This document shows, in pieces, positions 5,446 to 26,171 of a DNA stretch of 64,000 nucleotides (within the stretch, counting starts at the first letter, position 1; each line of letters starts with the position of its first letter). The notes under the pieces are model-generated. The model did no database searches. It had not been told where the DNA came from and saw nothing but the letters and a program-made list of their open reading frames with translations. Source of the stretch: a virus (lineage: Duplodnaviria > Caudoviricetes); IMG/VR virus record IMGVR_UViG_3300002597_000001, positions 32,001 through 96,000 of that record. One strand, written 5' to 3'. A program made the translations under genes and the position numbers.

Positions 5446-5908
5446 ATGGACAACAGCAACAAGATCATCCTGGACCTCTGCGGAGGAACAGGAAGTTGGT
5501 CCCGGCCATGGAAGCTTGCCGGGTATGATGTGCGGAATATCACACTGCCAGACTATGATGTGCTCACCTACGAGCCGCCTGACAACGTCTACGGCATACT
5601 CGCTGCCCCCCCCCATGCACGGAGTTTAGTGTACTGAACTGCATTGCGGAGAACCGACACCGAGACTTTGATTCTGGTATGGAAATTGTGAACGCAAGAA
5701 GTATGAGAAGTGGGAAGAGGTTCCCGACAAGTTGCCGCTCTATACAAGACCCGGCAGAGGGAAACCAAATTTTGCTTACCTACATAAAAGCGCATGGGAG
5801 AATGTCCCACAGCTCCAGTGGCACAAGCCGGAGACAGATGCCGAGTTCCGAGCCATGACACCGCCCGGTTTCGCTTGGGCGTTTTATGAAGCAAACAAAG
5901 ACAGATAA
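5446..5908 (+). pseudogene. second DNA methyltransferase, frameshift at C9 (5606-5614) plus apparent internal deletion
   Basis: IILDLCGGTGSWS..ILAAPP|CTEFS; ENP motif absent; C-terminal FRAMTPPGFAWAFYEANK in another frame. Confidence 0.72.
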
Positions 5909-5939
5909 CAAACTACGATTTGATGAGGAGCAAATTTAG

Positions 5940-6233
5940 ATGACCCCACGAGAGGCAATTGAAGTAATCAATAAGAACTGGCCATCAACTTCGCTGGGAC
6001 AACACACAGAATTGATTGAGGCGCTGAGAACGGCTGTCAAAGCCTTGATGTGGCGTATCCCTTTGAGTGTCACACATGAAGCTACTCTGCCACGATATTG
6101 TACTTGTCCGAGATGCAAGAATGTAGTGGACTCTTTTATGGATTTCAATGAGGAAAGAGTTAGAGTTAAACCGTCAATCTGCCGACACTGTGGGCAGGTA
6201 TTAGACTGGTCGGATGTAAAAGATGAAAACTAG
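5940..6233 (+). CDS. zinc-ribbon hypothetical protein
   Basis: CPRC...CRHCGQVLDW. Confidence 0.75.
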   Translation: MTPREAIEVINKNWPSTSLGQHTELIEALRTAVKALMWRIPLSVTHEATLPRYCTCPRCKNVVDSFMDFNEERVRVKPSICRHCGQVLDWSDVKDEN

Positions 6234-6256
6234 ATTTAATAGATAGGAGGAATTCA

Positions 6257-6799
6257 ATGTATCAGATTCGATCAAATGTGTTCGAAACAAACTCCAGTTC
6301 TACCCACAGCATCGTAATTTCAAAGGAGCCGGTGACCCGGTTTCCGACGACGCTTTACTTGAAGTTTGGAGAATATGGGTGGGAGTTTGACAATTATAGC
6401 CTACCGGATTATCTGTACACAGCAATTTATGAGGTGTTGTCCAGAGAAGAAGCCGAAGAGGCATGCCGCCATATTGAGAAAGTCCTCAGCCAACACGGTG
6501 TTGCCTGTGTGTTTGAGCCTCCGAAATACACCCAATACAGTGGTGGTGAGTACTTCGACAGCGGGTATGTAGACCATGGATATGAACTCGCTGACCTGGT
6601 TGAGGCCGTGCTTTCGAATGATGATCTACTGATTCGGGCTTTCTGCGGCGACGCAACGGTATATACAGGCAATGACAACTCTTATGCCGAGGATGATATG
6701 TGTAATTGTGCAGATGAATACCTGTGGACAGACTATGGAAAAGTACCAAATCCAAATCATGACCCCGAACACTACGACTATTTCTACAAAGGAAACTAA
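6257..6799 (+). CDS. IRxxVFETNSSSxHS-motif protein
   Basis: MYQIRSNVFETNSSSTHS; RBS. Confidence 0.8.
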   Translation: MYQIRSNVFETNSSSTHSIVISKEPVTRFPTTLYLKFGEYGWEFDNYSLPDYLYTAIYEVLSREEAEEACRHIEKVLSQHGVACVFEPPKYTQYSGGEYFDSGYVDHGYELADLVEAVLSNDDLLIRAFCGDATVYTGNDNSYAEDDMCNCADEYLWTDYGKVPNPNHDPEHYDYFYKGN

Positions 6800-6811
6800 G
6801 GAGGCGACAAA

Positions 6812-7189
6812 ATGATCCAGATCAGACCCAAGGTGTTTGAAACAAATTCTAGCTCGGTTCACAGTCTGATTATGTGTACGGGTGACGAATACGAACGTCT
6901 TAAAGAAGAAGAATTACTGATCGTTGTTGACCCGTGGGGATCGAGTTCTGAATATGCAGATCAAGACTTCGTAACCCCGGATCAGGCAAGAGACATTGCC
7001 GCGAAAGATAAATACTACACAGGGCCAGATCCATACAGGCTGTCTATTGGAGAGCTTCTTGAGTCATACAGAGATATCAAGACGCTGGAAGATTACTGTG
7101 ATACAGAATGGTTCGAAGGTTTTGAAGAGAGTTATACAACTCCTGGCGGAGAAAAGGTGGTAGCATTTGGGTACTATGGTCACGACTAA
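6812..7189 (+). CDS. IRxxVFETNSSSxHS-motif protein (paralogous N-terminus)
   Basis: MIQIRPKVFETNSSSVHS; RBS. Confidence 0.8.
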   Translation: MIQIRPKVFETNSSSVHSLIMCTGDEYERLKEEELLIVVDPWGSSSEYADQDFVTPDQARDIAAKDKYYTGPDPYRLSIGELLESYRDIKTLEDYCDTEWFEGFEESYTTPGGEKVVAFGYYGHD

Positions 7190-8114
7190 AGGCGTTGTTA
7201 CAGACGGCATTCTTGGAGTATACAGGAATGGGAATTATAGTGTAATGATCTGTTCTGACGGCACCAAGATTCGCTTTGCGGATGTAGACGAATTCCGCCC
7301 GACACACCCCGAGAGTATTGACCTTCTGATTACAAAATCCTGTGACCTCGGGTGTCCTATGTGTCATGAGGATGCCAGACCGGACGGGAAGCACGGAGAT
7401 ATCCTGAATCTTCCGTTCCTTGACACGATGCTTCCTCATACTGAAATCGCCATCGGCGGCGGCAACCCTCTGGAGCATCCTGACTTGAATGAATTCCTTG
7501 TCTCGTTGCGGGATAGACGGTTAATTGCCAACATGACCGTGAATCAAAAGCATTTCATGATGCCAGAGAATCAGAAGCGGCTGCACGATTTTGTTCATAA
7601 CGGTTTGCTTTACGGTATTGGTGTCTCCCTGACCGAAGGAAGTTCTGACCTGATAGAAGCTCTGGCTGAGTTTCCGAATGCTGTGGTCCACGTCATTGAA
7701 GGATACACTCCAATCGAAGAAATAAGGAAACTTTATGGAACCGGTGTAAAGATCTTGATTCTTGGATACAAAACCTTCCGTCGCGGCGGCGCCTTGTATT
7801 TAAACGATCCAAGCATTGCACTGAATCAGACGCGGTGGAATGATGAATACATCGGAGAAATTGTGAACGATGGGGAGTTTGCGGCAGTCAGCTTCGACAA
7901 TCTGGCGATCCGTCATTTGAATCTCAAAGACCGGATGGGCGATTCCGAGTGGGCTAAATTCTATATGGGCGACGATGGTCAGTTCACCATGTACGTTGAT
8001 GCGGTAAACCGGCAGTTCTCTAAGAACTCAACAAGCTCTACGAGACACGCTATGCTGGATGATATCAAAGATATGTTCGCGGTTGTCAAAACCAAAAGAG
8101 TGAATGAAAACTAA
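7167..8114 (+). CDS. radical SAM protein
   Basis: CDLGCPMC (CxxxCxxC), AIGGGNPLEHP. Confidence 0.9.
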   Translation: MGTMVTTKGVVTDGILGVYRNGNYSVMICSDGTKIRFADVDEFRPTHPESIDLLITKSCDLGCPMCHEDARPDGKHGDILNLPFLDTMLPHTEIAIGGGNPLEHPDLNEFLVSLRDRRLIANMTVNQKHFMMPENQKRLHDFVHNGLLYGIGVSLTEGSSDLIEALAEFPNAVVHVIEGYTPIEEIRKLYGTGVKILILGYKTFRRGGALYLNDPSIALNQTRWNDEYIGEIVNDGEFAAVSFDNLAIRHLNLKDRMGDSEWAKFYMGDDGQFTMYVDAVNRQFSKNSTSSTRHAMLDDIKDMFAVVKTKRVNEN

Positions 8115-8137
8115 GTTTGGTGTGAGGAGGTGAAGAC

Positions 8138-8494
8138 ATGCCTGGATATATCGACAAAGACGCCTTGATCAAAACGACCGAAGAGGCTCCGTTTACAATG
8201 TCAATGTGCGTGTCAGTTGAAGAGTGTAACGGAATGAACAGAGCCAGAAAACTATTCGTTGAAATATTTAAGACCCTCCCTACCTCCGATGTAGCACCAG
8301 TGATACATGGGGAATGGATTGATATGCAACCTCCTGATGCGGATGGGAATGTGCAATGTTGGTGCTCTGTTTGTGGGGCCGGAGAGTTACATGCCGAAAA
8401 TCAAGTAGTCCCATATTGTTGGAAGTGCGGGGCGAAGATGTCCCCGACATCAATGTCGGGGACAAGTGGAGGTGCGAACAATGCGGCTGATTGA
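8138..8494 (+). CDS. zinc-ribbon paralog 1
   Basis: YIDKDAL..DVAPVIHGEW..CSVC..YCWKCGAKM. Confidence 0.8.
   Translation: MPGYIDKDALIKTTEEAPFTMSMCVSVEECNGMNRARKLFVEIFKTLPTSDVAPVIHGEWIDMQPPDADGNVQCWCSVCGAGELHAENQVVPYCWKCGAKMSPTSMSGTSGGANNAAD
8439..8464. repeat. palindrome TGTCCCCGACAT-CA-ATGTCGGGGACA, core repeated at 9148-9168
   Basis: 12-bp perfect arms; CCGACATCAATGTCGGGGACA identical in both copies. Confidence 0.85.
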
Positions 8495-8882
8495 TGGCAA
8501 CGCCCTGTACGAAAAGACGGCAGAGTGGGAGTCGCTTGCGATGGAAACGCTAAAGGTACAGGAGGACAATGCCGAATGGCAACGTTGGCAAACAATTCTG
8601 ACCGAGCGGACGGCGTTCAAGTATGACGTGGCAGATGCTCCCACCATCGATGCCGTTCCAGTGGTACATGGTAACTGGATCACAAAAGAGTATATGTACG
8701 GAGATCCCGATGTCGGACTAGAAGATATGTGGGTTGATCGGCTTGCCGAAGCAACAGATTATTATGCGGAGTGTTCTATGTGCGGTAAAAACGCGGGATA
8801 TGATGGCGAGGGGAGCCTTATACTTTCCGATTTCTGCCCTTCGTGCGGAGCGAAGATGGATGGAGGTGACAGCAGTGACTGA
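8481..8882 (+). CDS. zinc-ribbon paralog 2
   Basis: MRLIDGNAL..APTIDAVPVVHGNW..CSMC..FCPSCGAKMD. Confidence 0.8.
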   Translation: MRLIDGNALYEKTAEWESLAMETLKVQEDNAEWQRWQTILTERTAFKYDVADAPTIDAVPVVHGNWITKEYMYGDPDVGLEDMWVDRLAEATDYYAECSMCGKNAGYDGEGSLILSDFCPSCGAKMDGGDSSD

Positions 8883-9192
8883 CTACATAAGCCGGGAAGC
8901 GGCGGTTAAAGCTGCTCAAGATGGCGCGGACAAGTGGGATGGTGGGTTTAATAGAAATCGAGATTCTTATATTGAGTGCGCCATTGATCTGATTCCCGCC
9001 GCTGACGTTGTCGAGGTGGTACATGGGAAGTGGAGGCAAGACAAACAAGGTAAATGGCGATGCTCTGTGTGCAAAGCCGGAAACAACTATGCGTATGCGT
9101 GGGTATTGCAAGACAACTACTGCCCCAACTGCGGTGCGAAGATGAGACCGACATCAATGTCGGGGACAAATGGAGGTGCTGAAAATGGCTGA
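8875..9192 (+). CDS. zinc-ribbon paralog 3
   Basis: YISREAA..PAADVVEVVHGKW..CSVC..YCPNCGAKM. Confidence 0.8.
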   Translation: MTDYISREAAVKAAQDGADKWDGGFNRNRDSYIECAIDLIPAADVVEVVHGKWRQDKQGKWRCSVCKAGNNYAYAWVLQDNYCPNCGAKMRPTSMSGTNGGAENG

Positions 9193-9502
9193 GTATGTAA
9201 AAAGATCTGACGTGCTGGACGCCTCGAAAATCGTGTACATCGAGTACATAGAAGTAGACAGTGAAGGGTATGAGGAAGGCGACGCTGACGACATCCCTGT
9301 TGTTTTCAAACGAGATATCGAGGCCATCCCCGCCGCCGATGTGGTGGAGGTGGTGCATGGGGAGTGGCTATGGTTCGAGGACTGCTCAAATAGCGGACTA
9401 TACTGTTCTGCCTGCCACAAACTCATTCATAAAGTGATGACACCGAAAAAGAAGTTATCTAACTACTGCCCAAACTGCGGAGCAAAGATGGATAAAACCT
9501 AA
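9185..9502 (+). CDS. zinc-ribbon paralog 4
   Basis: PAADVVEVVHGEW..CSAC..YCPNCGAKMD. Confidence 0.8.
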   Translation: MAEYVKRSDVLDASKIVYIEYIEVDSEGYEEGDADDIPVVFKRDIEAIPAADVVEVVHGEWLWFEDCSNSGLYCSACHKLIHKVMTPKKKLSNYCPNCGAKMDKT

Positions 9503-9526
9503 ATTTGATTATAAGGAGGAGCGATA

Positions 9527-10120
9527 ATGCCGACTGGATATACAGCGGGAATTGAAGAAGGGAAGATTACTTCCGGGGCTGAGTTTCTTATGCTATGTGC
9601 TAGGGGTTTTGGAGCTTGTATTGATATGAGGGACGAACCGCTGTCTAAGCCCATCCCTGACAAGTTTCAGCCTAGTGGCTATTACGCAGAAAGTCTGCTT
9701 CGTGCCCAGAGAAAACTCGCAGAATATAAAGCTATGACTCCGACCGAAATACATGAGCAAAACGAGGCTGAATACCAGAAGCGAGTAGAGCAAGAGAAAG
9801 CTCGTCAAGAGAAATATGCGGAGATGTTCTCCAAATATCAAAGCGTCCGTGACGAAGTTGAGCGATGGGTGCCTCCAACGGCTGACCACGATGGGCTTAA
9901 AAAATTCGCACTAGAACAGATTGATATGTGCATGCCTGATTTTAGACCGAGACAAGAGAATATTGAACGTATTTCAGATGATGAGTGGATCACTCAGCGC
10001 ATCGATATGTATTCAAGAGATATTCCGTACTACGAGGAGAGAATCGAAGAAGAGCGAAAGAACTATGAGTCTAAGAATAAATGGATTCGTGATCTTAGAA
10101 AAAGTCTTAACATGAAATAG
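9527..10120 (+). CDS. phage hypothetical protein (MPTGYT start)
   Basis: RBS, 197-aa helical ORF. Confidence 0.8.
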   Translation: MPTGYTAGIEEGKITSGAEFLMLCARGFGACIDMRDEPLSKPIPDKFQPSGYYAESLLRAQRKLAEYKAMTPTEIHEQNEAEYQKRVEQEKARQEKYAEMFSKYQSVRDEVERWVPPTADHDGLKKFALEQIDMCMPDFRPRQENIERISDDEWITQRIDMYSRDIPYYEERIEEERKNYESKNKWIRDLRKSLNMK

Positions 10121-10291
10121 TCTTTTGATAGGAGGATGGTATGCAACTAATTCCAAACGACGCCAGAGGGCCTAAAGAGCCTGATCGATGAAATTGTCGA
10201 GATCTCTATTAAGGCAAGGGGCTGCCTGCGTGAAGGAAGACTATTTGCAGACAACACAATCTGATGAAACATAATTTTGGTGGAGGACATA

Positions 10292-10492
10292 ATGAATTCA
10301 GAAGAAATGGCCGTTATTGAATTTCTTGAGGATGTATATACTGAGGCACACGATGAAGGTGACTGGGTGATGCAGATCAGACTTGCGAGAGCAATCGCCG
10401 CATTCAAAAGCAATCCAGGGGATGCACAGGAGGCTGTGTTCACGGGTGATTTCATCGAAAAATACTACGATGGAGTCTTAGATAAAACGTAA
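10292..10492 (+). CDS. hypothetical protein
   Basis: GGAGG RBS, ATG at 10292. Confidence 0.7.
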   Translation: MNSEEMAVIEFLEDVYTEAHDEGDWVMQIRLARAIAAFKSNPGDAQEAVFTGDFIEKYYDGVLDKT

Positions 10493-10510
10493 CTTTGGTG
10501 AGGTGGAGTA

Positions 10511-10906
10511 ATGAACCTGTATTGGAGAATTTGGTGGTTGCTACGTGATCGGCACATGCGGAAGTATGCCAAACAGCCGCCGTCGATTCAATACGACAGG
10601 CGGTATCACACACATGTCGCCACGGTAAACCCGTCTGAAGATGGCTATATTGAGTATGTTTTGGGAGAGATTACGCAGGGCGGCTTGGTTTATCATTTTA
10701 TGGTTGCTGGAATCGGGCCATTAGGACTGGTGCATATGCATTCGTTTGATGCAGTGCTGAAAATCGCATACGAGGAAGCCGACACGTTCCAGATCCCAGA
10801 TGATTGCCTTGATGAATACAGCCAACAAGAGCTTGAGTTTCTCAAAGCAGTTGTACAGCGGGGGAAATTGGATATGGCAAATTATAAATCAGGAGAACAG
10901 CGATGA
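10511..10906 (+). CDS. hypothetical protein
   Basis: RBS, ORF. Confidence 0.7.
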   Translation: MNLYWRIWWLLRDRHMRKYAKQPPSIQYDRRYHTHVATVNPSEDGYIEYVLGEITQGGLVYHFMVAGIGPLGLVHMHSFDAVLKIAYEEADTFQIPDDCLDEYSQQELEFLKAVVQRGKLDMANYKSGEQR

Positions 10907-11316: not shown

Positions 11317-11334
11317 CGTAGTTAGAGGTGTGTA

Positions 11335-12208: not shown

Positions 12209-12209
12209 G

Positions 12210-12644
12210 GTGTCCATTGTGGTATGTGTAAGCTACGATTGCCCAAGGTACGTAGACTGTGCAAGAACAGAAGGATACGGACAAGTCGAGGCGTTTGCAA
12301 CACATGGCTATGGGTATATTTCGGCAGAAGGAATCGTCGAGCACAATGATTGTGGACCGCTTGGAGGTTATGCGATGTTTAAACCAAAACCAAAGAATAT
12401 GCCCGATTTGAGGGAGGCTGAGTGGATAGATGATCCACACGGCAGCACATACAGAGACGGAAGAAGAATTTTTGTCAAGGTGTGCTCAAAATGCGGCGGC
12501 GCAAATCCGTTCAACATAGTTGGAGAACCGTACTATCCGCAATACTGCTCCGATTGCGGCAGGGCAATGAGAAACAGCCCTGAACTGACGATGAAAGAGA
12601 TATTTGCAGGAGGTGGTTGCGATAGACAGGCTTACAATTCCTAA
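12210..12644 (+). CDS. zinc-ribbon hypothetical protein
   Basis: CSKC..YCSDCGRAM. Confidence 0.7.
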   Translation: MSIVVCVSYDCPRYVDCARTEGYGQVEAFATHGYGYISAEGIVEHNDCGPLGGYAMFKPKPKNMPDLREAEWIDDPHGSTYRDGRRIFVKVCSKCGGANPFNIVGEPYYPQYCSDCGRAMRNSPELTMKEIFAGGGCDRQAYNS

Positions 12645-13183: not shown

Positions 13184-13352
13184 TCTCTGGTTGGCAATTG
13201 CCGGATACATAGTCGCATTGATGTATATTGGGTTGGGAATCCTGCAGGTCGTAGCTGATGAATTCCAGTATGGTTTTATCTTTGCAGTCGCGTGGATTGT
13301 TATTGGCTCAGTTTGGATGCGGCTTTATAAAAAATACAAAACAGATGTTTGA
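13170..13352 (+). CDS. small membrane protein
   Basis: two hydrophobic helices. Confidence 0.65.
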   Translation: MNKSNLWLAIAGYIVALMYIGLGILQVVADEFQYGFIFAVAWIVIGSVWMRLYKKYKTDV

Positions 13353-13367
13353 TGGAGGCGTAGGAAG

Positions 13368-14696: not shown

Positions 14697-14721
14697 TGTC
14701 ACAGTTTGTTTACATTTATAT

Positions 14722-14819: not shown

Positions 14820-15242
14820 ATGGGTTTTCGTACAGGAGCTTATGCAACAGTTTGGGAGGTGACTCCTGAGAAGGAATTTAGCACGAAGTTGCAGATTTCG
14901 ATCAGTCGGAAGAATAAGGACGGCGAATACGAACAGGACTTCTCTGGATTTGTGTATGCCAATGGAACCGGCGCGGCGAAGAAGGCAGCGCAGCTTCAGA
15001 AGCAGGATCGTATTCGGCTTGGTGATGTGGATGTGACCACAACCTACAATAAAGAAAAGAAGGTTACCTATACAAATTATAAGGTATACAGCTTCGCCAC
15101 ATCGGATGACGAGAGGTTCAATCTCGGCGCAAAGGAGTTTGTCGCGGCGATCAATAACAACTCTCAGAGCACTGCTGCCAAGCCCGCAAGCAAGCCCGTG
15201 AATGTAGAACCGGAAGTTTCCACAGAAGATGTGCCATGGTGA
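14820..15242 (+). CDS. ssb: single-stranded DNA-binding protein
   Basis: SISRKNKDGEYEQDF, acidic tail EDVPW. Confidence 0.75.
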   Translation: MGFRTGAYATVWEVTPEKEFSTKLQISISRKNKDGEYEQDFSGFVYANGTGAAKKAAQLQKQDRIRLGDVDVTTTYNKEKKVTYTNYKVYSFATSDDERFNLGAKEFVAAINNNSQSTAAKPASKPVNVEPEVSTEDVPW

Positions 15243-16108
15243 GACACGGAGAATCAAAAACAAAGCTCCACAATGTATGGAATTCAATGATCATGAGGTG
15301 TCATAACCCAAATTCCACTGCTTATGCGCACTACGGAGGAAGGGGTATATCCGTATGTGAGGAGTGGAGAGAATATTTGCCATTTGCTGAATGGGCTAAA
15401 TCGAACGGATATCACGAAGGGTTAACAATAGATCGTATAGATGCAAATGGCGATTATTGCCCAGAAAACTGTAGGTGGGCCACGTTTAAAGAACAGGCAA
15501 ATAACAAAACTAATAATCGATACATCACATATTTAGGTGAAACCAAGACGATGTCTCAGTGGAGCGAAATAGTAGGCGTAGATCCAGGAACTATAGCTTT
15601 TAGGCTAGATAATGGTTGGAGCGTTGAAAAAGCTTTGACAACCACACCTCAACACACAGATATAACGTATCGTGGCAAAACAATGTCTGCCGAAGCTTGG
15701 GGGAAAGAAATTGGAATCTCCCCAACAACATTGAGGGGTAGAATGTTACTGGGGTGGAGCGATGATGCTATCATCGAGACTCCTCCAATGTTCAAACAAG
15801 AGGTTGAATACGGCGGGCAGGAAAAACAGGTGTCAGCATGGGCTAGAGCTGTGGGAATGAATCCACAGACACTTTGGAGCAGATTGCGCAAAGGGACCAG
15901 CCTTGAAATTGCGCTTACAACTCCTGTGCAACCCACAACGCACGTCCTCACTACGTCGGACGGAGAATCCCACACGGTTACTGAGTGGAGTAAGATCAGT
16001 AATGTAGACCGCCATACTATTCGAAACAGGCTCAAACGAGGGTGGACTATTGACGAAGCTGTAAGAACGCCTGGGAGAAAGTCAAAAGATGGTGAATCGG
16101 ATGAATAA
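15236..16108 (+). CDS. HNH-type homing endonuclease with four HTH-like repeats
   Basis: RCHNP..YGGRGISVCEEW..TIDRIDANGDYCPENCRWAT; repeated W...G....RL..GW. Confidence 0.85.
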   Translation: MVRHGESKTKLHNVWNSMIMRCHNPNSTAYAHYGGRGISVCEEWREYLPFAEWAKSNGYHEGLTIDRIDANGDYCPENCRWATFKEQANNKTNNRYITYLGETKTMSQWSEIVGVDPGTIAFRLDNGWSVEKALTTTPQHTDITYRGKTMSAEAWGKEIGISPTTLRGRMLLGWSDDAIIETPPMFKQEVEYGGQEKQVSAWARAVGMNPQTLWSRLRKGTSLEIALTTPVQPTTHVLTTSDGESHTVTEWSKISNVDRHTIRNRLKRGWTIDEAVRTPGRKSKDGESDE

Positions 16109-16859
16109 TACAAAAGAATGTTATTCGTTTAGTCGCCTTTCGTCTTTCGAAAATTGCCCATATGGATACTACGAAAGATATATAGGACATAAACCAAGTC
16201 AGAACAACAGCTTCGCCGAATTTGGATCGTATTGTCATTCACTGTTTGAAGCCTATGCCAAAGGAGAATATGAGCTCGACAGTTTAGCTGATATCTATGA
16301 GTTCGGATACTCGGATGCCATTACATGCAAATGGCCTAACAATCGTTTTGTTGACCTTGAATCTAGCTACTACAACGCCGGGAAGAAATTCTTTGAGGAG
16401 TGGGAGGGGTATGACGACTCCTACCACATCCTCGGAGTGGAAGAGGAGTTCACGATTCAGATAGCCGATTTCGATATGACAGGATTCCTTGACCTTGTAT
16501 ACGAAAGAGACTCCAAACTGATCATCCGGGACTACAAATCCAAGGGCGAGATTAAGAAGACGGAGCAACAGCACTACGCTCGGCAACTCTACATATATTC
16601 TGCCTACGTCAAGGAGAAATACGGGAGGTTCCCAGACAAGATCGAGTTCTTCTGCTTCAGAAAAAACCACGTCTTGGAGATTCCGTTCTGTATGGAAGAT
16701 TATTGCGAGGCTATCCAGTGGGCAATTGATATGGTGGCGAAGATACGGAATGAATGGGAGTTTAACAAGACGCCATCGCAATTTTTCTGCTTGAATTTAT
16801 GCAATGTCCGTGGCGAATGTCCCTACGGAAAGTATTGGAGGTGGATGAAAAATAAATAG
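16101..16859 (+). CDS. PD-(D/E)xK RecB/Cas4-like exonuclease
   Basis: YSFSRL..CPY, GFLDLV..IRDYKS, QLYIY, C-terminal CxxxCxxxxxC. Confidence 0.85.
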   Translation: MNNTKECYSFSRLSSFENCPYGYYERYIGHKPSQNNSFAEFGSYCHSLFEAYAKGEYELDSLADIYEFGYSDAITCKWPNNRFVDLESSYYNAGKKFFEEWEGYDDSYHILGVEEEFTIQIADFDMTGFLDLVYERDSKLIIRDYKSKGEIKKTEQQHYARQLYIYSAYVKEKYGRFPDKIEFFCFRKNHVLEIPFCMEDYCEAIQWAIDMVAKIRNEWEFNKTPSQFFCLNLCNVRGECPYGKYWRWMKNK

Positions 16860-17211: not shown

Positions 17212-17309
17212 CGGAACTGCAACGCTCTTTTTCTTCATACTCGGGGTGATTTTTGGAATTATTGCGCACAAACTGTATTCTGAAACGAATGATGATGGCG
17301 GTGATTGGA

Positions 17310-17666: not shown

Positions 17667-17696
17667 GTATGAAAACGATGTTTGGTGGGTGGTAAT

Positions 17697-18086
17697 TTGA
17701 GGACGAATCTTCTCGAAGAAACAAAAGCAACGCTGGCCGAGTACAACCTTGATCTCAAGGATGTTAGCTGGGTTGGAATTGGTTTGTACCGCATCCCGTG
17801 GGAGGTATTTCGTCGGGTTGCTGACCAGTTCTATGACAATGGTTATGGCGGTGCTGAGGTGAACGAAAACCTAATCGTGTGCGGCGATGATTGGTGGCTT
17901 GAACGCCATGAATATGACGGATCTGAATGGTGGGAGTATAAGACGATGCCAGTGAAACCCGAGTTAGAGCTGGAACGCCCAGAACTACATATATTCCCAA
18001 GCTTCCACCGTAGATTCTATTTTAATTACGATTCTCCGAATGCCGAGATGGAGTTCAAATCCATCTGCTCAGATGAAGATGAATAA
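17697..18086 (+). CDS. hypothetical protein flanked by two 18-bp sites
   Basis: YDNGYGG..WWLERHEYDGSEWWEY. Confidence 0.75.
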   Translation: MRTNLLEETKATLAEYNLDLKDVSWVGIGLYRIPWEVFRRVADQFYDNGYGGAEVNENLIVCGDDWWLERHEYDGSEWWEYKTMPVKPELELERPELHIFPSFHRRFYFNYDSPNAEMEFKSICSDEDE

Positions 18087-18120
18087 TAAAAGACTTATTT
18101 GATAAAGGAGATGATTGCTA

Positions 18121-18321: not shown

Positions 18322-18332
18322 GGAGGAATGAG

Positions 18333-21300
18333 ATGGAAGTTAATATCCGGTTGAATAAGAATTTTACAACGCAGTACAACAAACTACAGGCTGAGTTCGG
18401 TACAGAGATAGCGGCGATTAATGGGTTTGATGACGGGCAGCTTTCCTATACGGATTTCATAGATAATTTTGCGGCTAAGGATGTTGTTGCAGATGCGAGC
18501 ATTGACGGGAATTCCAATGTATCACATAAGGACATCGTCACGCTGGAACGAGAAATGTCCAAGCCTCACGAAAAGCTGATTGCGTTCAGTAAAATCTATC
18601 AGGAGATCCAGGACAAATACGGATTCAAAGCCGCTAATGAGTGGTTGCGACTGGAGTGGATCGGCGCTCTGTATCTGCATGATGCCAGTACCAGCACCCT
18701 CAAGAGCTATTGTTTTGCCTATGATTTGAAGGATCTTGCTGAGAAGGGAATGTACTTCGAAGAAGGTCGGAACGCAAAACCGGCACAGCACTTGATCACA
18801 TTTGTGGATTTTGTGAAAGAATTTGTCAGCTTCACATCCAACCGTACAAGCGGAGCCGTGGGACTCCCGAATCTCATTCCCTATATGTTCTACTTCTGGA
18901 AGAAGGATATTACAGAAGGATATATGGGACTGACGGAAGAGATGGGGGAGCGGTACGCAAAAAGCAATATCCAGAGATTCATCTATGCAGTCAATCAAAG
19001 CCACTGCCGCGATGGTTCGCAATCGGCCTTTACGAATACTTCGATTTTCGACCATCCTTATTTTGAAGCGCTGTTCGGCGGGGCAGTATTTCCAGACGGA
19101 TCATTCATGATCGACTACGAGGAGGAGATCATTGAATTCCAAAAATGGTATCTGGAAGAAATGGCGGCAATCCATTCGGAAAACATGTTCACGTTCCCTG
19201 TTAATTCTATCAGTCTTCTCCGGCAGAACGGGAAATTTGTAGATGAGGAATTTGCCAAATATGCTGTGCGACACAATATGGAATGGTCTGATTCAAATCT
19301 CTTTGTGGACAGTTCTGTTAACAGTTTGAGTAACTGCTGTAGACTCAAGTCCAATATCCAAGACCTCGGCTATTTCAACAGTATTGGCGGAACGGCGCTC
19401 AAGGTCGGTTCTGTAAAGGTGAATACTGTGAATCTCGCAAGAATCGCGCTGGATTGCACAACTGAAGAGGAATATCTGGACGAGCTTTATCACAGGACGA
19501 CTGTCTGCCTCCGCGCTCTGGATGTGGTCAGGAGCATCATCCGCAGTAATGTCAGGAAGGGGCTCCTCCCGAATTTCTCCAAGGGCCTCATTGATTTCGA
19601 GCACCTTTATAATACAGTGGGCTTCCTGGGTATCTATGAGACAATGAAGAAATTCGGATATACCAAGGTCGATCCGTTTGGAAATACATACTACACGCCG
19701 CTGGCGTCTACTTTCGGTCAGAAGATTTTCCAGACGATGCGGAAAGCAGCAGACGATTTTATCGCAGCAGATCCCACGGTGGATTACCAAATCAACACCG
19801 AACAGATCCCAGGCGAATCAGCGGCTGCGAAGCTGATGAAAAAGGACAAGTTCTTCTATCCTGACGCCAACATCTACGATTTGCCGTTGTATGGAAACCA
19901 GTTCATTCCGCTGGGGATCCAGACCACGTTACAGGAACGTGTGCGGATCGCCGCCGAGTTCGACGGCTACTGCAACGGAGGCTCGATCCTCCATGCCAAT
20001 ATCGACGCGCCGTTTGACAGTTTTGAGAAGGCGTGGAAGATGGTAAACTACATCGCTGATGCCGGTGTAACGTATTTCGCATTCAATACCAAAATTCAGT
20101 CGTGCGAAGACAACCATGCGTTCTACGGAGATACTTGCCCAGTGTGCGGGAAACCTGTAGATGCGGAGTTCACGAGGATCGTAGGGTAAAGTGGTGTACT
20201 GCCCAATGCTTTGGCAACAAGGTAACGCGATCTAAAACAAGAAACCTCGAATATGCGGGGACCCCCTTAGAGACTTCAATACTAACCCACAGGGAAACCG
20301 AGTGGCGGCGGAACTAATCACTCCGGGACAGTAATAAGTTGAAGTATTGGGAAATCCGCAGGCATAGCTGAAATGCGATGGCCCCAACGACTACCAAGAG
20401 GCGTCCGATCACGGACGAAGGTATAGTCTATTCCGATTAGAAATAAGGAGAAATACATATGACTAATAGAGAAGATTTCACAGGACAGATATTTGGCAAA
20501 AGAAAAGTAATTCGTAATTATTGTGTTGAAGAAGATTGGATTAATATTGGAAAGCCGATACCGAATGATATCCGCAAGTACAGATTGTCAGAATGCCTGA
20601 ACTGCGGCGCAAAAGTTCCAGTGCTTATGAAAAACCTCTTTGAGCGCCCTCCAAAAAGGTGTTGTTTTTGCTCCAATATTCGGAATACCAGTACGACAAT
20701 TCAGTCTTCCACAAATACTTGGACATTGTATGACGATTATGCGGCTGTCAATGTTACTTATAAAGATGGCGTCGTGACCGGATACGTCAGTAAAGAAGAT
20801 TATGAGGATGTTTCAAATCGTATGTGGCGGGTAAGCAAAAAGAAGAACAAATATTATTTGCTCAGTGGCTCCAAATACAAAGACGATGTCATCTATCTGC
20901 ACAGATTTATCCTACGAGATAAGGAAATCCTGTCTGGGCACGAAGTTGATCACATTGATGGGAATTCGCTGAATAACCGCCGAGAAAATCTTCGGGTTGT
21001 AACGAGGCTTGAGAACATACAAAATGTGTCTCAACGAATCGATAACCAGATTGGAATCAGAGGTATTGCGCCGGATGGGCGTGGTAAATACACGGTGGAT
21101 TTTTCTCATAATAATAAACGGTATTACTTTAAGCCATGGGACACATTGGCCGAAGCCGTCTGCTGCCGAGGTGTTTTGGAAGATTACTTCGGTCTTGAAA
21201 TGATTAGGCGAAATCCAAAAGCGCAGGCAGTTGACGTTCTGCCTCTATGTCAGGTAAGTGAAATCAAACAATATGTATTATCCAAAATATCGTGAAAGCG

Positions 21301-21410
21301 ACGGTATTAAAGTTTACACCAGAGTTAGCACATGGTCCAGCGAGAGAGCTGACGAATACAAGCTCCGTCGCTGGGAGGAGATCAACGCGACTGCGGAGAA
21401 GATCGAATGA
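18333..21410 (+). CDS. nrdD: anaerobic ribonucleotide reductase, spliced (exons 18333-20187 and 21313-21410; 650 aa)
   Basis: YCF, SNCCRL, EQIPGE, CPVC; join restores the glycyl radical motif TRIVG|FYTR. Confidence 0.93.
20188..21312 (+). mobile_element. group I intron in nrdD
   Basis: 5' exon GGGT/IGS GCCC; P AATATGCGGGGAC, Q AATCCGCAGG, R CAACGACTA, S AAGGTATAGTCT; terminal G; P10 GGTGTA/TACACC. Confidence 0.93.
20459..21295 (+). CDS. intron-encoded HNH(-AP2-like) homing endonuclease
   Basis: YLHRFI..VDHIDGNSLNNRRENLR. Confidence 0.88.
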   Translation: MTNREDFTGQIFGKRKVIRNYCVEEDWINIGKPIPNDIRKYRLSECLNCGAKVPVLMKNLFERPPKRCCFCSNIRNTSTTIQSSTNTWTLYDDYAAVNVTYKDGVVTGYVSKEDYEDVSNRMWRVSKKKNKYYLLSGSKYKDDVIYLHRFILRDKEILSGHEVDHIDGNSLNNRRENLRVVTRLENIQNVSQRIDNQIGIRGIAPDGRGKYTVDFSHNNKRYYFKPWDTLAEAVCCRGVLEDYFGLEMIRRNPKAQAVDVLPLCQVSEIKQYVLSKIS

Positions 21411-21883
21411 AATTAAAGGGCATTATTTTTGAGGACTTCGTCAACTACAAAAAGCCATGCATGACCCTTGAGTTCCCAAACTGCTCATTCAAATGCGACA
21501 AGGAGGCAGGGGTGCCAGTTTGCCAGAACAGTGAACTGGCCTCCGCGCCAACGCGAGAGTTTGACGTTCACGATATTTGCGAGGCGTATCTCTCCAACGA
21601 TATAACAAGTGCAATCTGTTTACAGGGGCTTGAGCCGCTTGACAGCATTGGAGATGTAATGTCTCTGGTCTGGGCAATGCGCAAGCATTATAACTGCCAT
21701 GATGATATTGTGATTTATACAGGATACAACGAGTATGAAATTAGCTCAGAGCTCCTCCTACTGTCTAAATATGACAATATCATCGTGAAGTTTGGGCGCT
21801 TTATTCCTAACAGACCACATATCTATGACGAAGTTCTCGGCGTTGAGCTTTCGTCAGATAATCAGTATGCGAGGAGGTTATAA
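21407..21883 (+). CDS. nrdG: anaerobic RNR activating enzyme
   Basis: CSFKC..CQN, GLEP, IYTGY, SSDNQYA. Confidence 0.88.
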   Translation: MKLKGIIFEDFVNYKKPCMTLEFPNCSFKCDKEAGVPVCQNSELASAPTREFDVHDICEAYLSNDITSAICLQGLEPLDSIGDVMSLVWAMRKHYNCHDDIVIYTGYNEYEISSELLLLSKYDNIIVKFGRFIPNRPHIYDEVLGVELSSDNQYARRL

Positions 21884-22168
21884 ATGACCATTTGTTCGGG
21901 CAAATATGAGCGCCATCCGTCTTATACGGTAGCCGACATTCTCACCGGAACGCCCCCAATCGATCTCATAATGGTCCGCACTAACGACCATAATGGCGGT
22001 GACATGTTGTTTGGTTACTGCCAGTGGGACGGGGAGAGGTTGATCCCGCTTGACGGAGATGATTACCGCATGGATGAATGCGTTATGAAACATGAGTATC
22101 CTTTTTGCGGACCAGTCGATCTGATTTACTGGATTCACTCTAACTGGACTGTGGAGGAAGAAACATGA
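21884..22168 (+). CDS. hypothetical protein
   Basis: RBS, ORF. Confidence 0.68.
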   Translation: MTICSGKYERHPSYTVADILTGTPPIDLIMVRTNDHNGGDMLFGYCQWDGERLIPLDGDDYRMDECVMKHEYPFCGPVDLIYWIHSNWTVEEET

Positions 22169-22461
22169 TTATTATTGAGACGTGCCCAAGGTGTGGTGGA
22201 GATTTACGAGACGAGGTAATTGCAACATACCCTCCGGTCCCGAGAAAGTCCTGCCCAAAATGCGGCTGGTTTTGGGAAGGTGTGAGGGAACGGGTGATGA
22301 GAGTACCATTCAGAGAACCAGGTGTTCCTTATATGGAGGCTCCTACAGCGATATCTAGCCTAAATGTATCAACGCCTCCGTGTGCGACCTGCGGATCAAA
22401 TCCGAAGAATGGCGGCTCTGGGAACTGTCATTGTATTCTTGGGACACCGACTATTACATAA
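22165..22461 (+). CDS. Cys-rich zinc-binding protein
   Basis: CPRC, CPKC, CATC, CHC. Confidence 0.72.
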   Translation: MIIIETCPRCGGDLRDEVIATYPPVPRKSCPKCGWFWEGVRERVMRVPFREPGVPYMEAPTAISSLNVSTPPCATCGSNPKNGGSGNCHCILGTPTIT

Positions 22462-22474
22462 AAGGAGGTCAGAT

Positions 22475-22876
22475 ATGGCTATAATTTTGAAAGAAAAGAG
22501 TATGAATGAGTGTCTCTGCCAGAAATGCGGCAGCACGATTGGATATACGGATGACGATATATGTATGGCAAAAGACGACTATGGAAAGACCGGGCAGGGA
22601 CTAGAATGCCCGAAGTGTGGCAGTATTATCTTGGTCAAAGAAATGGCACAGGATGAGTGGCCGGAAGCCTTTTATCACTTCGGAGACGGGGTTCATCTTA
22701 CCGACCAGGAAATTCAGCGATATGTTGACGAATGCATACGCAAGTTGCGTAACGGCGAGACAGATTATACATATGTTGGATCCGGTGACACATTCGTTAT
22801 GGCAAGTTGGGATGGTGGGGATATCGTCGTTCGTGTTTGCCGTGACTATTACGAGGCGTATGTATATGGGACTTGA
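22475..22876 (+). CDS. zinc-ribbon hypothetical protein
   Basis: AAGGAGG RBS; CQKC, CPKC. Confidence 0.72.
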   Translation: MAIILKEKSMNECLCQKCGSTIGYTDDDICMAKDDYGKTGQGLECPKCGSIILVKEMAQDEWPEAFYHFGDGVHLTDQEIQRYVDECIRKLRNGETDYTYVGSGDTFVMASWDGGDIVVRVCRDYYEAYVYGT

Positions 22877-23207
22877 GTGGAATGTTTGGGTGGGGAACTG
22901 GAATCGCAAGACCGTTGAACCGCATAACATTTTCGATCATGGCGGGTTTTCGGAAGACTGCCGCAAGATATATAACAAATACGGCAAAGGAAGGAACCCC
23001 GACAAGGGGTCGTTCCTCGAAGAAATCCGCCAGAGCTTAATGTATTACTATTGGAGCAAGTCAGAGTGGGAGATCGTATTACAGCATTGGCCTCCGTATT
23101 CAGACGGAGACGGGGAAAAGATCGATGTATATCAGCAAGTTAGGATGAACTGGAATCAGTTCTGCGAATACCTGTGGGACCACCGGTCCAGTCTAAACTA
23201 TTTTTAA
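22866..23207 (+). CDS. hypothetical protein
   Basis: LMYYYWSKSEWE..KIDVYQQV. Confidence 0.72.
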   Translation: MGLEWNVWVGNWNRKTVEPHNIFDHGGFSEDCRKIYNKYGKGRNPDKGSFLEEIRQSLMYYYWSKSEWEIVLQHWPPYSDGDGEKIDVYQQVRMNWNQFCEYLWDHRSSLNYF

Positions 23208-23216
23208 GGAGAGATA

Positions 23217-23423
23217 ATGAGACTCTTTGAAATCGAAGCGGACTACCGCCCGAACAATCAGGACAAGCCGCGCTATTATGTGCTGGCAAAATCCAAGAGT
23301 GATGCGAAGCGTAAGTTTAAGAACCGTATAACATGGCTTGACATTTATGGTTGCGAAGAAGTCACGGACGAAGCTCAGGCCACCTATATTTATGATCACC
23401 CAGAGAAATATATCCTGTGCTAG
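23217..23423 (+). CDS. hypothetical protein
   Basis: RBS, ORF. Confidence 0.68.
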   Translation: MRLFEIEADYRPNNQDKPRYYVLAKSKSDAKRKFKNRITWLDIYGCEEVTDEAQATYIYDHPEKYILC

Positions 23424-23434
23424 GAGGAATGCAA

Positions 23435-23962
23435 GTGAATCGAGTTGGAAAGTTTAGCAAAGTTTCATACGATCAGTGGGCGGCGGCGATTAGATCGCAG
23501 ACCGACGCCATTACCGAGGATGCAATTCTCGACCTGTATCACCAGATTAAGTTGCCTCAGCGAGCAACGGCAGGAAGCGCCGGTTATGATATATACTCTC
23601 CGATTTGGGTAAGTCTGGAGTGTGGAGAATCTATCAAAATCCCGACCGGCATTCGCTGTGAGATGGACGAAGGTTGGGTGCTGACGATCTATCCAAGAAG
23701 CGGACTTGGAACAAAGCATAGATTTGTGCCGGACAACCTTGTTGGAGTTGTGGATGAGGATTATTTTTATTCCGACAACGAGGGGCATATCTGGTGCATG
23801 ATGACCTATAACGGTCATGAAGATCGCGAGAATAGAACACTGGAGATCAATCGCGGCGACGCTATTGCTCAGGCAATCTTCCTGCCGTATGGAATCACGA
23901 AAGATGATAACGCCACCGGCGTTCGCAACGGCGGGTTCGGAAGTACTGGAGGTGCCCAGTGA
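23435..23962 (+). CDS. dut: trimeric dUTPase
   Basis: SAGYD, PRSG, GVVDEDY, AQAIF, RNGGFGSTG. Confidence 0.95.
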   Translation: MNRVGKFSKVSYDQWAAAIRSQTDAITEDAILDLYHQIKLPQRATAGSAGYDIYSPIWVSLECGESIKIPTGIRCEMDEGWVLTIYPRSGLGTKHRFVPDNLVGVVDEDYFYSDNEGHIWCMMTYNGHEDRENRTLEINRGDAIAQAIFLPYGITKDDNATGVRNGGFGSTGGAQ

Positions 23963-24642
23963 CAAGAGTTGAAATACACAAGCAGTTCTGCGATGGGCTT
24001 TCTGATTTGTATGCCGCGAAGAATGCGGACTATGGTGACAGCTATGCCAAACTCCGGGCTAAATATCCTGAGAGCATCTGCATCAGACTTGAGGACAAGC
24101 TATCGCGGCTAGAGCAGTTGATGAAGCCGGGATATGAGGCACAGATAAAAGATGAGAGTATCTGCGACACTCTTCGAGATCTTGCCAACTACAGCCTCAT
24201 GGAACTCACTGAGCGGGAATATGAGAAGCAGAATTGCAATATTGCTCAGGATGATAATCAGGAAACAGATTGGGATGAATTTGTTCCTGTCTGGTCGCTC
24301 GATCAGGATGGTGTCACTGAGAGATACAACATCAGCGGCGGGCTGAATGATATTGAGCTGACTTATGACAAAGACACTGATATGTATGAGTTGTGGGTGG
24401 AGACCCTCTACGACTTCGAGAATAAAAAGTCCATCATCCGCTGGCTGGACAACATGGAAGTTGCGCTGTGGAAATATGTAAATGCGGCGGAGCCTGACGT
24501 TACATATAAAATCACTCTGGAAGACGCCCTCAATATCTCAAACACATTTACGGGGAAGACCATGCATGAGTGTGCTGAAAAGTTTTCGTTCCGCGTGAGC
24601 TGCATTGTAGACTTCTTGGAGGGCAACGATAGTGATTTGTGA
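23959..24642 (+). CDS. DUF1599-like nucleotide-modification-associated domain fused to unknown C-terminus
   Basis: KNADYGDS..RLEDKLSRL..ESICDTLRDLANY. Confidence 0.75.
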   Translation: MTRVEIHKQFCDGLSDLYAAKNADYGDSYAKLRAKYPESICIRLEDKLSRLEQLMKPGYEAQIKDESICDTLRDLANYSLMELTEREYEKQNCNIAQDDNQETDWDEFVPVWSLDQDGVTERYNISGGLNDIELTYDKDTDMYELWVETLYDFENKKSIIRWLDNMEVALWKYVNAAEPDVTYKITLEDALNISNTFTGKTMHECAEKFSFRVSCIVDFLEGNDSDL

Positions 24643-24841
24643 TAGATGCGATGGCGGTGTTTATCTTGACGGATTTGCAGTAACTAAATGCAAGGTCTGC
24701 GGTTACAAAATTGTGACCCCGCATACACCGGGTGGGAGGGTTTGCCCCTCCTGCTCGGTAACGCAGGGGCTGTGTGAACAGTGCGGCGAGAAACTAGAGG
24801 AGGTGCCTGATGGCGAAAACAATTTATCTGCCAGACGGTGA
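24632..24841 (+). CDS. Cys-rich zinc finger protein
   Basis: four CxxC pairs. Confidence 0.65.
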   Translation: MICDRCDGGVYLDGFAVTKCKVCGYKIVTPHTPGGRVCPSCSVTQGLCEQCGEKLEEVPDGENNLSARR

Positions 24842-24986
24842 GAGCTGGACGGTGTTTGGAGAAATCGATGCGGAGCGCAGCCTACGGCGAATCATCCAAG
24901 AATACTTGGGTGATGATTGCGTCGAACTGTTGGACGATGTGATTGCAGAGGCCTTCGAGCGTGGTGCTTGTTATGAGCCGGAATAA
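24810..24986 (+). CDS. hypothetical protein (58 aa, below ORF track cut-off)
   Basis: GGAGG RBS, MAKTIYLPDGE...YEPE*. Confidence 0.65.
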   Translation: MAKTIYLPDGESWTVFGEIDAERSLRRIIQEYLGDDCVELLDDVIAEAFERGACYEPE

Positions 24987-25010
24987 AAGACCAGTTTGGT
25001 GAGGTGAACT

Positions 25011-25358
25011 ATGGCAAAACATAAGAATTGCCCGAACTGTGCGGCTCCATATGACCCGGCTCTGAGCAAGTGTCCATACTGCGGGACGATCTACTTTGAT
25101 ATGTCTGTGATTGACTTCGATCATCATGAGCCATTCTGGCTGAAGATCCGTGTGGATGGGTGCGAGATCACCCAATTCGTTGTGCCAGAGATGGGGGAGA
25201 TGACAATCAGTCATAGTCCTGTTTACTGTGATTGGTCCGGGCAGAGGAAGATGGTGTTTGGTGGTCCCCCAGATGTGACCACGGACATTTCGTTCCATGC
25301 GGTTGCTGCACCAGACACAAATATAATGGCTACAGTAACCAGAATTGGAGGTACATAA
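25011..25358 (+). CDS. zinc-ribbon hypothetical protein
   Basis: CPNC..CPYC. Confidence 0.72.
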   Translation: MAKHKNCPNCAAPYDPALSKCPYCGTIYFDMSVIDFDHHEPFWLKIRVDGCEITQFVVPEMGEMTISHSPVYCDWSGQRKMVFGGPPDVTTDISFHAVAAPDTNIMATVTRIGGT

Positions 25359-25754
25359 ATGAGAAATATAATTCCTTTTGATCTGACTCAGAAAACCGAG
25401 GAGCTGCGGCAACTCATTCTCAACAACCCAGATCTGCCCATCGTGGTGCTGGCAGGTGAAGAGGCCAACTGCGGAGGAGATTACTATTGGATGTATTGCT
25501 CCAGCATTAGCTTTCGTATTACAGAAATCCTGGATTGCGAGACCCCATATAGTGACTGCGTATGTTCAGACAGAGATAGCTTCGAGGAGGACTTCGAGGA
25601 GTGGCTCTGGGATGAGATGGCCACAGAACTGAGAGATCGCGGCATCTCTGATGCAGAGCCAAGCGAGGATGAGTTTCAGGCGCGGCTAAAAGAAGAGAAG
25701 GAGAGGTACGGGCCGTATTGGAAGAAGGTGATTGCTATCTATGCAGACAACTAA
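25359..25754 (+). CDS. hypothetical protein
   Basis: RBS, ORF. Confidence 0.72.
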   Translation: MRNIIPFDLTQKTEELRQLILNNPDLPIVVLAGEEANCGGDYYWMYCSSISFRITEILDCETPYSDCVCSDRDSFEEDFEEWLWDEMATELRDRGISDAEPSEDEFQARLKEEKERYGPYWKKVIAIYADN

Positions 25755-25802
25755 GTGGATCAATGTTGACGATAGATTGCCAGATCCGCCGGAGGTGAAG
25801 TA

Positions 25803-26147
25803 ATGGCAGTAGCCTTTATCGCTGGGATATTAGTTGGAGGGGGTTTGTGCTCTGTTTTCTGGATTATCCAAAAACAAAAGCAAAGCACGACAGACATGCT
25901 GGAACGCACACATTTTGTTGAGATACAGGAAGCACCTGTGGTTACGCTTATGGCTGAATCGGCTTTTGCTATAGAGGACATGGATCGGTATGGCGAGGAT
26001 ACAGTTAGTAGGTTTGCCCGAGAGAGCGTTATGAGAAAAATAACAGATGATCTGGAGAATTATGTGAGATTTGAAACCTACGAAGACCCGTGTGCGCATA
26101 CTGTAACACTTCGCGGATCGATACGCGTTGCACAACCACAGATATAA
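25803..26147 (+). CDS. membrane-anchored hypothetical protein
   Basis: N-terminal hydrophobic helix. Confidence 0.7.
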   Translation: MAVAFIAGILVGGGLCSVFWIIQKQKQSTTDMLERTHFVEIQEAPVVTLMAESAFAIEDMDRYGEDTVSRFARESVMRKITDDLENYVRFETYEDPCAHTVTLRGSIRVAQPQI

Positions 26148-26171
26148 AACCCGAATTTGATGGGAGGCAAA

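Follow-up and report, generated by a model that had tools for sequence, protein, structure and literature searches.

A 64,000-nucleotide stretch of a tailed-phage genome (the window: bases 32001-96000 of the 108,778-bp IMG/VR record IMGVR_UViG_3300002597_000001, with w marking a window coordinate) has, between genes of its non-structural operons, repeated copies of an 18-bp dyad made of two 6-bp inverted arms around a 6-bp centre. These are phage-specific, strictly spaced, DNA-level dyads that stand at module boundaries and carry position labels, and exchange takes place inside them: so much is solid. Comparison with relatives shows that crossovers between phages fall within the 18-mer and that the sites are joints for reassorting gene modules; they look like labelled joints for gene exchange between phages. 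The account that we place first, and to which we would give an even chance, is that the phage annealing machinery makes use of a protein-bound boundary site for crossovers at short identity.

Three relatives, all metagenomic, provide the comparison. Two are contigs reached via the primase-helicase (relA, 84% protein identity; relB, 72%); the third, relC, is an IMG/VR record reached by an exact 18-mer scan. Such scans of viral, metagenome and genome collections otherwise returned chance matches only, and single-protein scans of viral contigs for more relatives returned nothing. Primase relatives at <=48% identity lack the motif, and distant relatives screened de novo by k-mers for other motifs gave output that was too noisy.

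The strict motif ATRAAA-N6-TTTGRT occurs nine times, always on the + strand, where shuffled sequences lead one to expect 0.06; the whole 108,778-bp genome has no further strict match, and a reversed control gives 0. A first-pass annotation, made from the letters of the window alone, had listed twelve sites under this formula: all twelve are present at their coordinates, nine of them strict, while those at w5907, w6223 and w13336 are one- or two-mismatch variants. Position weight matrix (PWM) and relaxed scans raise the number to ~25, between genome positions 20.5 and 58.2 kb; the additions include w12591 and w3016 inside the window and nine upstream of it. The fixed spacing, the single orientation and the avoidance of late genes that had also been claimed are borne out: nine pairs of arms are set at N6 versus 0-1 at each other spacing from N1 to N13; every copy is on the coding strand of non-structural genes; and the PWM scan finds 0 in the minus-strand late genes.

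Only the two 6-base arms and the Shine-Dalgarno sequence after them carry information; nothing upstream is conserved. The stop codon of the preceding gene usually lies inside the site or abuts it, as had been noticed, most commonly at motif positions 2-4 (the TRA of ATRAAA), and because it sits there a purine stands in the left arm in place of the C of a perfect palindrome. At most copies the Shine-Dalgarno sequence is 0-5 nt from the site, and in the four related genomes the start codon follows 8-18 nt past the motif end. In these genomes (the gene calls are our own, and crude) a site is found at 34/55 junctions with a 15-45-nt gap versus 3/129 tighter junctions, and the motif is rare inside genes rather than equally common there. 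The sites of the window are:

3016..3033, + strand: dyad ATAAAA-TAACAG-TTTTGT, a PWM match, 5 nt before tRNA-Leu(taa) at 3039-3116
5907..5924, + strand: dyad AACAAA-CTACGA-TTTGAT, before the gene at 5940-6233; relA has a cognate with different flanks
6223..6240, + strand: dyad ATGAAA-ACTAGA-TTTAAT, which with the w8104 site brackets a window-specific three-gene insert (6257-8114)
8104..8121, + strand: dyad ATGAAA-ACTAAG-TTTGGT, strict, with a cognate in all three relatives
9492..9509, + strand: dyad ATAAAA-CCTAAA-TTTGAT, strict, with cognates in relA, relB and relC
10112..10129, + strand: dyad ATGAAA-TAGTCT-TTTGAT, strict; in the relB cognate both flanks are unrelated
10264..10499, + strand: a cassette, found by blastn, of dyad CATAAT (10264-10281), a 66-aa gene and dyad CGTAAC (10482-10499)
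12591..12608, + strand: dyad ATGAAA-GAGATA-TTTGCA, a PWM match outside the first list, with cognates in relB and relC
13336..13353, + strand: dyad ACAAAA-CAGATG-TTTGAT, with a cognate in all three relatives
17669..18103, + strand: a variable slot between dyads ACGATG (17669-17686) and GACTTA (18086-18103)
24983..25000, + strand: dyad ATAAAA-GACCAG-TTTGGT, strict, followed by the gene at 25011-25358
26144..26161, + strand: dyad ATAAAA-CCCGAA-TTTGAT, strict, upstream of the primase-helicase module, with cognates in relA and relC

The spacer had been described as variable in sequence. This is so from site to site; at any one site, however, it is kept between related phages. Each pair among the four genomes has 8-10 exact spacers in common (expectation <=0.15), and their order is collinear, with a Kendall tau of 1.0 in 6/6 pairs. 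The conservation ends with the element: ungapped identity at cognate sites is ~0.4 in the flanks, 0.92-1.0 in the 18-mer and ~0.6 in the Shine-Dalgarno region, with a step from ~0.4 to 0.92 at motif base 1 and a drop past base 18. Both flanks are unrelated in 40 of the 62 cognate pairs.

At these sites gene gain, loss and replacement break in the three relatives, the comparison that the first-pass annotation had proposed as its check. Motif junctions coincide with synteny breaks in 76/79 comparisons, all other junctions in 253/342, a difference that is lost among junctions of similar gap. The slot between ACGATG and GACTTA is the simplest example: the four phages fill it with four unrelated open reading frames (of 134, 72, 89 and 94 aa) bounded by the same two 18-mers. 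The "empty" allele with a single site, also foreseen, has its instance in CATAAT, two copies of which flank a gene in relB versus the one copy in the window; two same-spacer copies of CTTTAA, at genome 23103 and 23832, likewise flank an inserted gene. The segment w10263-10504, which spans the cassette, is 97% identical to relB by blastn where other shared segments are ~65-87% identical, and both of its outer flanks are unrelated. Within the site, left-arm variants go with the left flank (9/10 vs 19/51, p=0.004) and have no association with the right flank; the left arm thus co-segregates with the left flank only, and the crossovers therefore lie between the arms.

At w8104 the relB blastn match begins at the first motif base; the spacers ACTAGA (w6223) and ACTAAG (w8104), which bracket the three-gene insert, differ at two positions. 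Four tandem paralogues of one small gene family (8138-9502), with no dyad between copies, fill the ACTAAG-CCTAAA slot, a family represented by one or two copies in the relatives. Downstream of w9492 the window and relA each have a different sequence, and relB and relC agree in the first bases. (The gap between the CCTAAA and CAAAAA dyads is non-coding and unalike in sequence in relA, relB and relC: ~480-580 bp in relA and relB [L014:4192-4671; L015:3845-4424], ~140 bp in relC.) The w13336 cognates are followed by four different downstream sequences, with a different first gene in three phages, and the relA copy has no Shine-Dalgarno sequence beside it. At w12591 an extra window gene lies between the dyad and the Shine-Dalgarno sequence of the conserved next gene, and at w26144 the first gene downstream is present or absent between phages. 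The GACCAG site and its gene have a counterpart after the Pol III gene in relB, the match beginning 1 nt before the motif. A degenerate dyad, ATAAAA-GATATG-ATTCAT, is found after the tRNA/RNA cluster (window 34590-34607); at its place relB has an intact dyad and the 25011-25358 gene of the window.

Duplicated spacers around inserts, and the fact that the variable gene is usually the first after the site, could also be read as traces of small mobile units, with TTTGRT...ATRAAA as terminal inverted repeats that insert into a 6-bp centre and duplicate it as their target. We consider this the least probable of the explanations, barely worth entertaining: no transposase is associated with the sites, adjacent units have a single site in common and the spacers at their two ends differ, and most replacements are swaps in a fixed slot rather than insertions.

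The phenomenon is not peculiar to these four genomes. By its gene families (MrpR-like and Pol III, with YopX/YorH in intermediate contigs) the phage belongs in the wide SPbeta-like group, although tblastn matches only nine of its proteins to SPbeta. In SPbeta itself WTAAAA-N6-TTTTAW is present 33 times versus 2 for the reversed control, with spacing strictly N6, and in its annotated part 11/12 dyads are intergenic; a distant SPbeta-like contig (L331, 32% GC) has ten before start signals versus 0.2 expected. Among five cultured SPbeta-like phages cognate dyads keep their spacers amid reassorted flanks: at the AGACTG dyad, three upstream flanks are combined with four downstream ones in five ways. 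Internal homology ends <=10 nt from a dyad in 55/204 cases in these cultured phages versus 4.5 expected under a uniform null, and in the SPbeta region compared, 6/6 dyad junctions are break points, as are roughly half of the other junctions. Since complete genomes from cultured SPbeta-like phages show this pattern too, chimeric assembly is an unlikely source of the mosaicism. The dyad is phage-specific: three Firmicute genomes have no excess of the SPbeta type (33 vs 36, 89 vs 102, 9 vs 10), and a site for a host-wide regulator is set aside on this ground.

At what level is the dyad read? Its position invites an RNA-level explanation (enhancement of translation, binding of a translational repressor, or RNase processing just 5' of the ribosome-binding site): the copies are always on the coding strand, close to a Shine-Dalgarno sequence and at a narrow distance from the start, a position that resembles that of the start-associated sequences (SAS) of cluster K mycobacteriophages (PMC3203893). 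We hold such an explanation to be very improbable. Ten sites fold like their shuffles, with z from -1.3 to +1.3, and inspection finds no compensatory changes among arm variants, which disposes of a stable RNA hairpin. The site at w3016 and its cognates in relA and relC (CAACAG) precede tRNA-Leu genes, the site at genome 29400 precedes a terminator, and downstream of the CAGGAC cognate two phages have a terminator and a third has a gene; a pure translation signal is thereby made unlikely. The SPbeta dyads stand at varying distances from the Shine-Dalgarno sequence, some of them far from any start. The arms, moreover, vary symmetrically between clades (ATCAAA/TTTGAT vs TTAAAA/TTTTAA), as expected of a dimeric DNA binder, so that double-stranded recognition fits. 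A function tied to translation starts is thus unlikely, and recognition of double-stranded DNA is favoured. Nor is the dyad a promoter, a promoter operator or a terminator: there is no fixed -35/-10, and nothing is conserved beyond the 18-mer and the Shine-Dalgarno sequence. Scanning for sigma-70-like promoter sites and for terminator-like sites finds no excess, and an Rfam search returns tRNAs only.

If the arms are bound by a protein, which one? Candidates and the recombination genes that enter the argument below are, in the window:

827-1171, + strand: PemK/MazF-like toxin gene, 5' of the MrpR-like gene (PemK profile match)
1252..2175, + strand: MrpR-like recombinase-fold protein (PF22822, E 1.4e-11)
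3136..3918, + strand: Sak single-strand annealing protein (PF06378, E 1e-40)
16101..16859, + strand: PD-(D/E)XK nuclease (PF12705, E 5.6e-21)
34908..36125, + strand: Tn916-type integrase (PF00589 and PF02920)

Just upstream of the window is a minus-strand lysogeny operon (L220:10455-11137; genome 29455-30137) that encodes an HTH_3 repressor related to SPbeta YonR and a 105-aa HExxH protein, a pair conserved in all relatives. Upstream, too, but inside the dyad array, is an orphan short Phage_integrase-family protein of 312 aa. The first-pass annotation had counted three proteins of tyrosine-recombinase fold in the window; two are inside it and the third is this upstream one. The Tn916-type enzyme is the lysogeny integrase and is without link to the dyads. 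The PemK/MazF-like and MrpR-like genes are kept as a pair (window 827-2175; relA, L218:8586-9919; relB, L219:3335-4717).

One could suppose that the dyads are simply an array of operators or "stoperators", bound by a repressor (MrpR-like, or HTH_3/ImmR-like) that stops early-gene read-through in the lysogen; the match with mosaic boundaries would then be incidental, because all gapped junctions are boundaries. Several points speak for it. The phage is temperate and encodes both candidate repressors; HTH_3 repressors such as 434 cI use 4-6-bp arms around a 6-bp centre; the sites are restricted to non-structural operons and have one orientation, as in L5 stoperators; and, when only junctions with a 15-45-nt gap are considered, synteny is broken at 28/29 with the motif versus 23/26 without it, which is no difference. 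The master repressor of SPbeta, MrpR (YopR), is itself a dead recombinase, and the box to which it binds, SPBRE, is dispersed and dyad-like (PMC10516654). The same work, however, reports ~10 ChAP-seq peaks at SPBRE, not 33, and SPBRE (derived here as about ATACAAAAAATATGTAT) differs from the dyad in sequence and geometry. The MrpR-like protein is an unlikely binder also because it is only 36% identical in relA and 25% in relB (92% in relC) despite the same arms. The HTH_3 repressor is a weak candidate: it is 34-45% identical among same-arm phages, and its recognition helix differs in relB. Its 105-aa partner was discarded, the HExxH motif being that of ImmA-type proteases. An operator also leaves the position-specific, conserved spacers unexplained. 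A pure operator array is judged unlikely.

A dedicated system of site-specific cassette exchange is the leading alternative, and we treat it as a tentative one, possible rather than probable. A tyrosine recombinase would bind the arms and swap strands across the 6-bp centre; the centres would be heterospecific, so that only cognate sites recombine and gene order is kept. The enzyme might be the short integrase encoded upstream (in SPbeta, YopP) or a recombinase of the host. With its strict 6-bp spacing the dyad is built like the core site of a tyrosine recombinase; all sites use common arms, which co-vary by clade, the centres are position-specific and better kept than the degenerate bases of the arms, and crossovers fall between the arms. 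Same-spacer copies flank inserts (CTTTAA twice; CATAAT twice in relB), the ACTAGA and ACTAAG sites bracket the three-gene insert in like manner, and the 312-aa protein is an orphan present in the array besides the lysogeny integrase. Against these points, the arms are just 6 bp long, with no conservation outside the 18-mer; the short integrase has diverged to 37% identity between two phages whose arms are the same and has no BLASTP similarity to SPbeta YopP, which removes it as an orthologue; direct repeats with identical spacers persist in the genome; and several insertions beside a site leave no second site. The orphan recombinase-fold proteins taken together (MrpR-like, short integrase) are ~25-37% identical among same-arm phages, and no recombinase is tied to the sites.

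The reading that we prefer would need no dedicated strand-exchange enzyme. The dyad would be a protein-recognised boundary site of non-structural operons, placed after the stop of one unit and ahead of the start signals of the following one (Shine-Dalgarno sequence, tRNA gene or terminator), with arms common to all sites of a phage clade and a centre that is specific to map position and kept between phages. A putative dimeric protein would bind the arms, its everyday role probably being insulation of, or a roadblock to, expression between modules. Exchange would follow from short-identity recombination of cognate copies, which the bound protein might stimulate and the phage's annealing protein and nuclease would carry out. 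Genes for both are present in the phage, which counts in favour of this reading; the PD-(D/E)XK nuclease is likely to be the exonuclease partner of the annealing protein. (In relA, relB and relC the Sak slot holds ERF, the relC gene being of the same family as the relA and relB ones.)

Several observations weigh against it. 1) Spacer positions are conserved at 0.95-1.0 and degenerate arm positions at 0.68-0.89, an order that neither a plain operator nor neutral short-homology exchange explains; that the centres are so strongly conserved is the chief unexplained fact, and the best argument for a dedicated recombinase. 2) Continuous identity between cognate sites goes down to ~12 nt, which is short for annealing-type recombination. 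3) Gene-sized indels and module breaks are found at dyad-free junctions also, and the equality of gapped junctions with and without the motif, cited above, tells here as well. 4) The early-left region of relA is without sites. 5) The candidates compared (MrpR-like protein, short integrase, HTH_3 repressor) name no binder. Some gene-sized indels lie between the right arm and the next Shine-Dalgarno sequence and leave no second site; these, like those at dyad-free junctions, are best explained by microhomology between Shine-Dalgarno sequences.

The mechanism originally suggested for the sites, an integron- or pdif-like capture of genes, finds no support, unlike the expectation on breakpoints, which do fall at the sites. 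In integrons IntI is encoded beside attI and the promoter Pc, and the attC sites are imperfect palindromes of 57-141 bp that fold as single strands and are conserved in structure. The recombinases here are Tn916-type Int, a short Phage_integrase-family protein and an MrpR-like protein, no head resembling attI/Pc was seen, and the dyad is conserved over only 18 bp that fold no better than shuffles. The pdif/dif sites of XerC/XerD, which bound modules on Acinetobacter plasmids, are 28 bp long, with 11-bp arms around a 6-bp centre, and those of a module alternate in orientation. Like them, the dyads bracket genes with two-arm sites that have a 6-bp centre, and there is cassette-like gain and loss; unlike them, they have arms of 6 rather than 11 bp with no conservation beyond, and keep one orientation throughout. 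On informal comparison with dif arms, no Xer-like sequence was detected in the dyads. The defining features of either system are thus lacking, no recombinase is linked to the sites, and many indels use Shine-Dalgarno microhomology without a dyad copy beside the displaced gene.

The stoperators of mycobacteriophage L5 and cluster A are asymmetric 13-bp sites without a spacer, bound by the repressor gp71. They too are short sites, present in dozens in short intergenic gaps and oriented with transcription; the dyad differs as a spaced two-arm site, and the phage's candidate repressors are too divergent. An older conception is closer in spirit. The modular theory of Susskind and Botstein reportedly held that short conserved "linker" sequences direct recombination to module boundaries, an idea that is said to have remained a hypothesis with few clear examples. 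To such linkers the dyads add a common protein-site architecture and position labels.

The short elements of T4-type phages known as PeSL (promoter-early stem-loop), which combine a sigma-70 promoter with a terminator hairpin, mediate modular shuffling and form mini-circles (PMC2839356, PMC4122927). With the SAS and their extended form, described next, they are the nearest published analogues. PeSL and dyads alike are short, conserved and intergenic and lie in hyperplastic regions that hold non-essential genes; recombination of copies accounts for indels and replacements, and element-bounded indels and replacements between relatives are seen with the dyads. The dyads, however, have neither promoter nor hairpin, and each has its conserved, position-specific centre, whereas PeSL exchange takes place between any copies. 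The SAS of cluster K phages and their extended form (ESAS) occur in the non-structural half only, in one orientation, just upstream of starts, and the stop of the preceding gene falls in the repeat; ESAS, whose inverted repeats are separated by a spacer that varies, were judged likelier to be DNA-binding sites than RNA hairpins (PMC3203893), and the function of both was still unknown in 2025 (PMC12699233). Only this positional logic is common to the dyads. SAS is a 13-bp GGGATAGGAGCCC-type box that contains the ribosome-binding site, while the dyad lies 5' of the Shine-Dalgarno sequence; ESAS have 17-bp arms and spacers of 4-13 bp, and the dyads differ from them in sequence and size and also precede tRNA genes. 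For SAS/ESAS neither a spacer conserved by position nor a connection with module exchange is reported. SPBRE, lastly, resembles the dyad in being dispersed, A/T-rich and dyad-like, and the recombinase-fold protein that binds it has a homologue encoded in the window; its ~10 copies are at early promoters, at variable distance from starts, and are distinct from the 33 SPbeta dyads. SPbeta literature searches found no paper describing the dyad.

What steers mosaic exchange to gene boundaries has long been asked, and the dyad is a defined 18-bp site at those boundaries. The 33 copies in SPbeta, a tractable phage of Bacillus subtilis with many sequenced relatives, make the question directly testable. 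If the sites are true crossover addresses, they would explain how accessory genes, perhaps counter-defence genes among them, are traded without breaking operons, and they could serve phage engineering as natural orthogonal docking sites. If cassette exchange were the mechanism, one recombinase would serve dozens of sites, with the centres as heterospecific addresses like natural lox variants, and co-infecting phages would swap genes slot by slot with gene order unscrambled.

It remains to describe the phage. The ends of the record are direct terminal repeats, and the phage is ~109 kb and temperate; no close relative was found among GenBank phages. By profile search of the window proteins, the + strand genes up to ~w36000 are early, recombination and replication genes (MrpR-like, Sak, PD-(D/E)XK nuclease, NrdD, primase-helicase and Pol III alpha); the Tn916-type integrase, the PemK-like toxin and tRNA genes are also encoded. 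The minus-strand genes are mostly large, fitting a late or structural role. In relC (L163, 4000-9400) the whole replication module has been replaced: its primase is 39% and its Pol III 28% identical to those of the window, many early genes being 80-96% identical. A gene for a 290-aa protein with C-terminal helix-turn-helix motifs (window 15236-16108) occupies other map positions in relA and relB, three in all, without flanking dyads, and behaves as a free-standing mobile gene. The anaerobic ribonucleotide reductase gene of relA (L010:710-3994) is interrupted by a GIY-YIG endonuclease gene, and in the window (18333-21295) nrdD is followed by an HNH endonuclease gene. Finally, relB encodes an adenylosuccinate-synthetase-like protein (L219:8809-9990; PF00709); proteins of this type can be PurZ, a marker of diaminopurine (Z) genomes.

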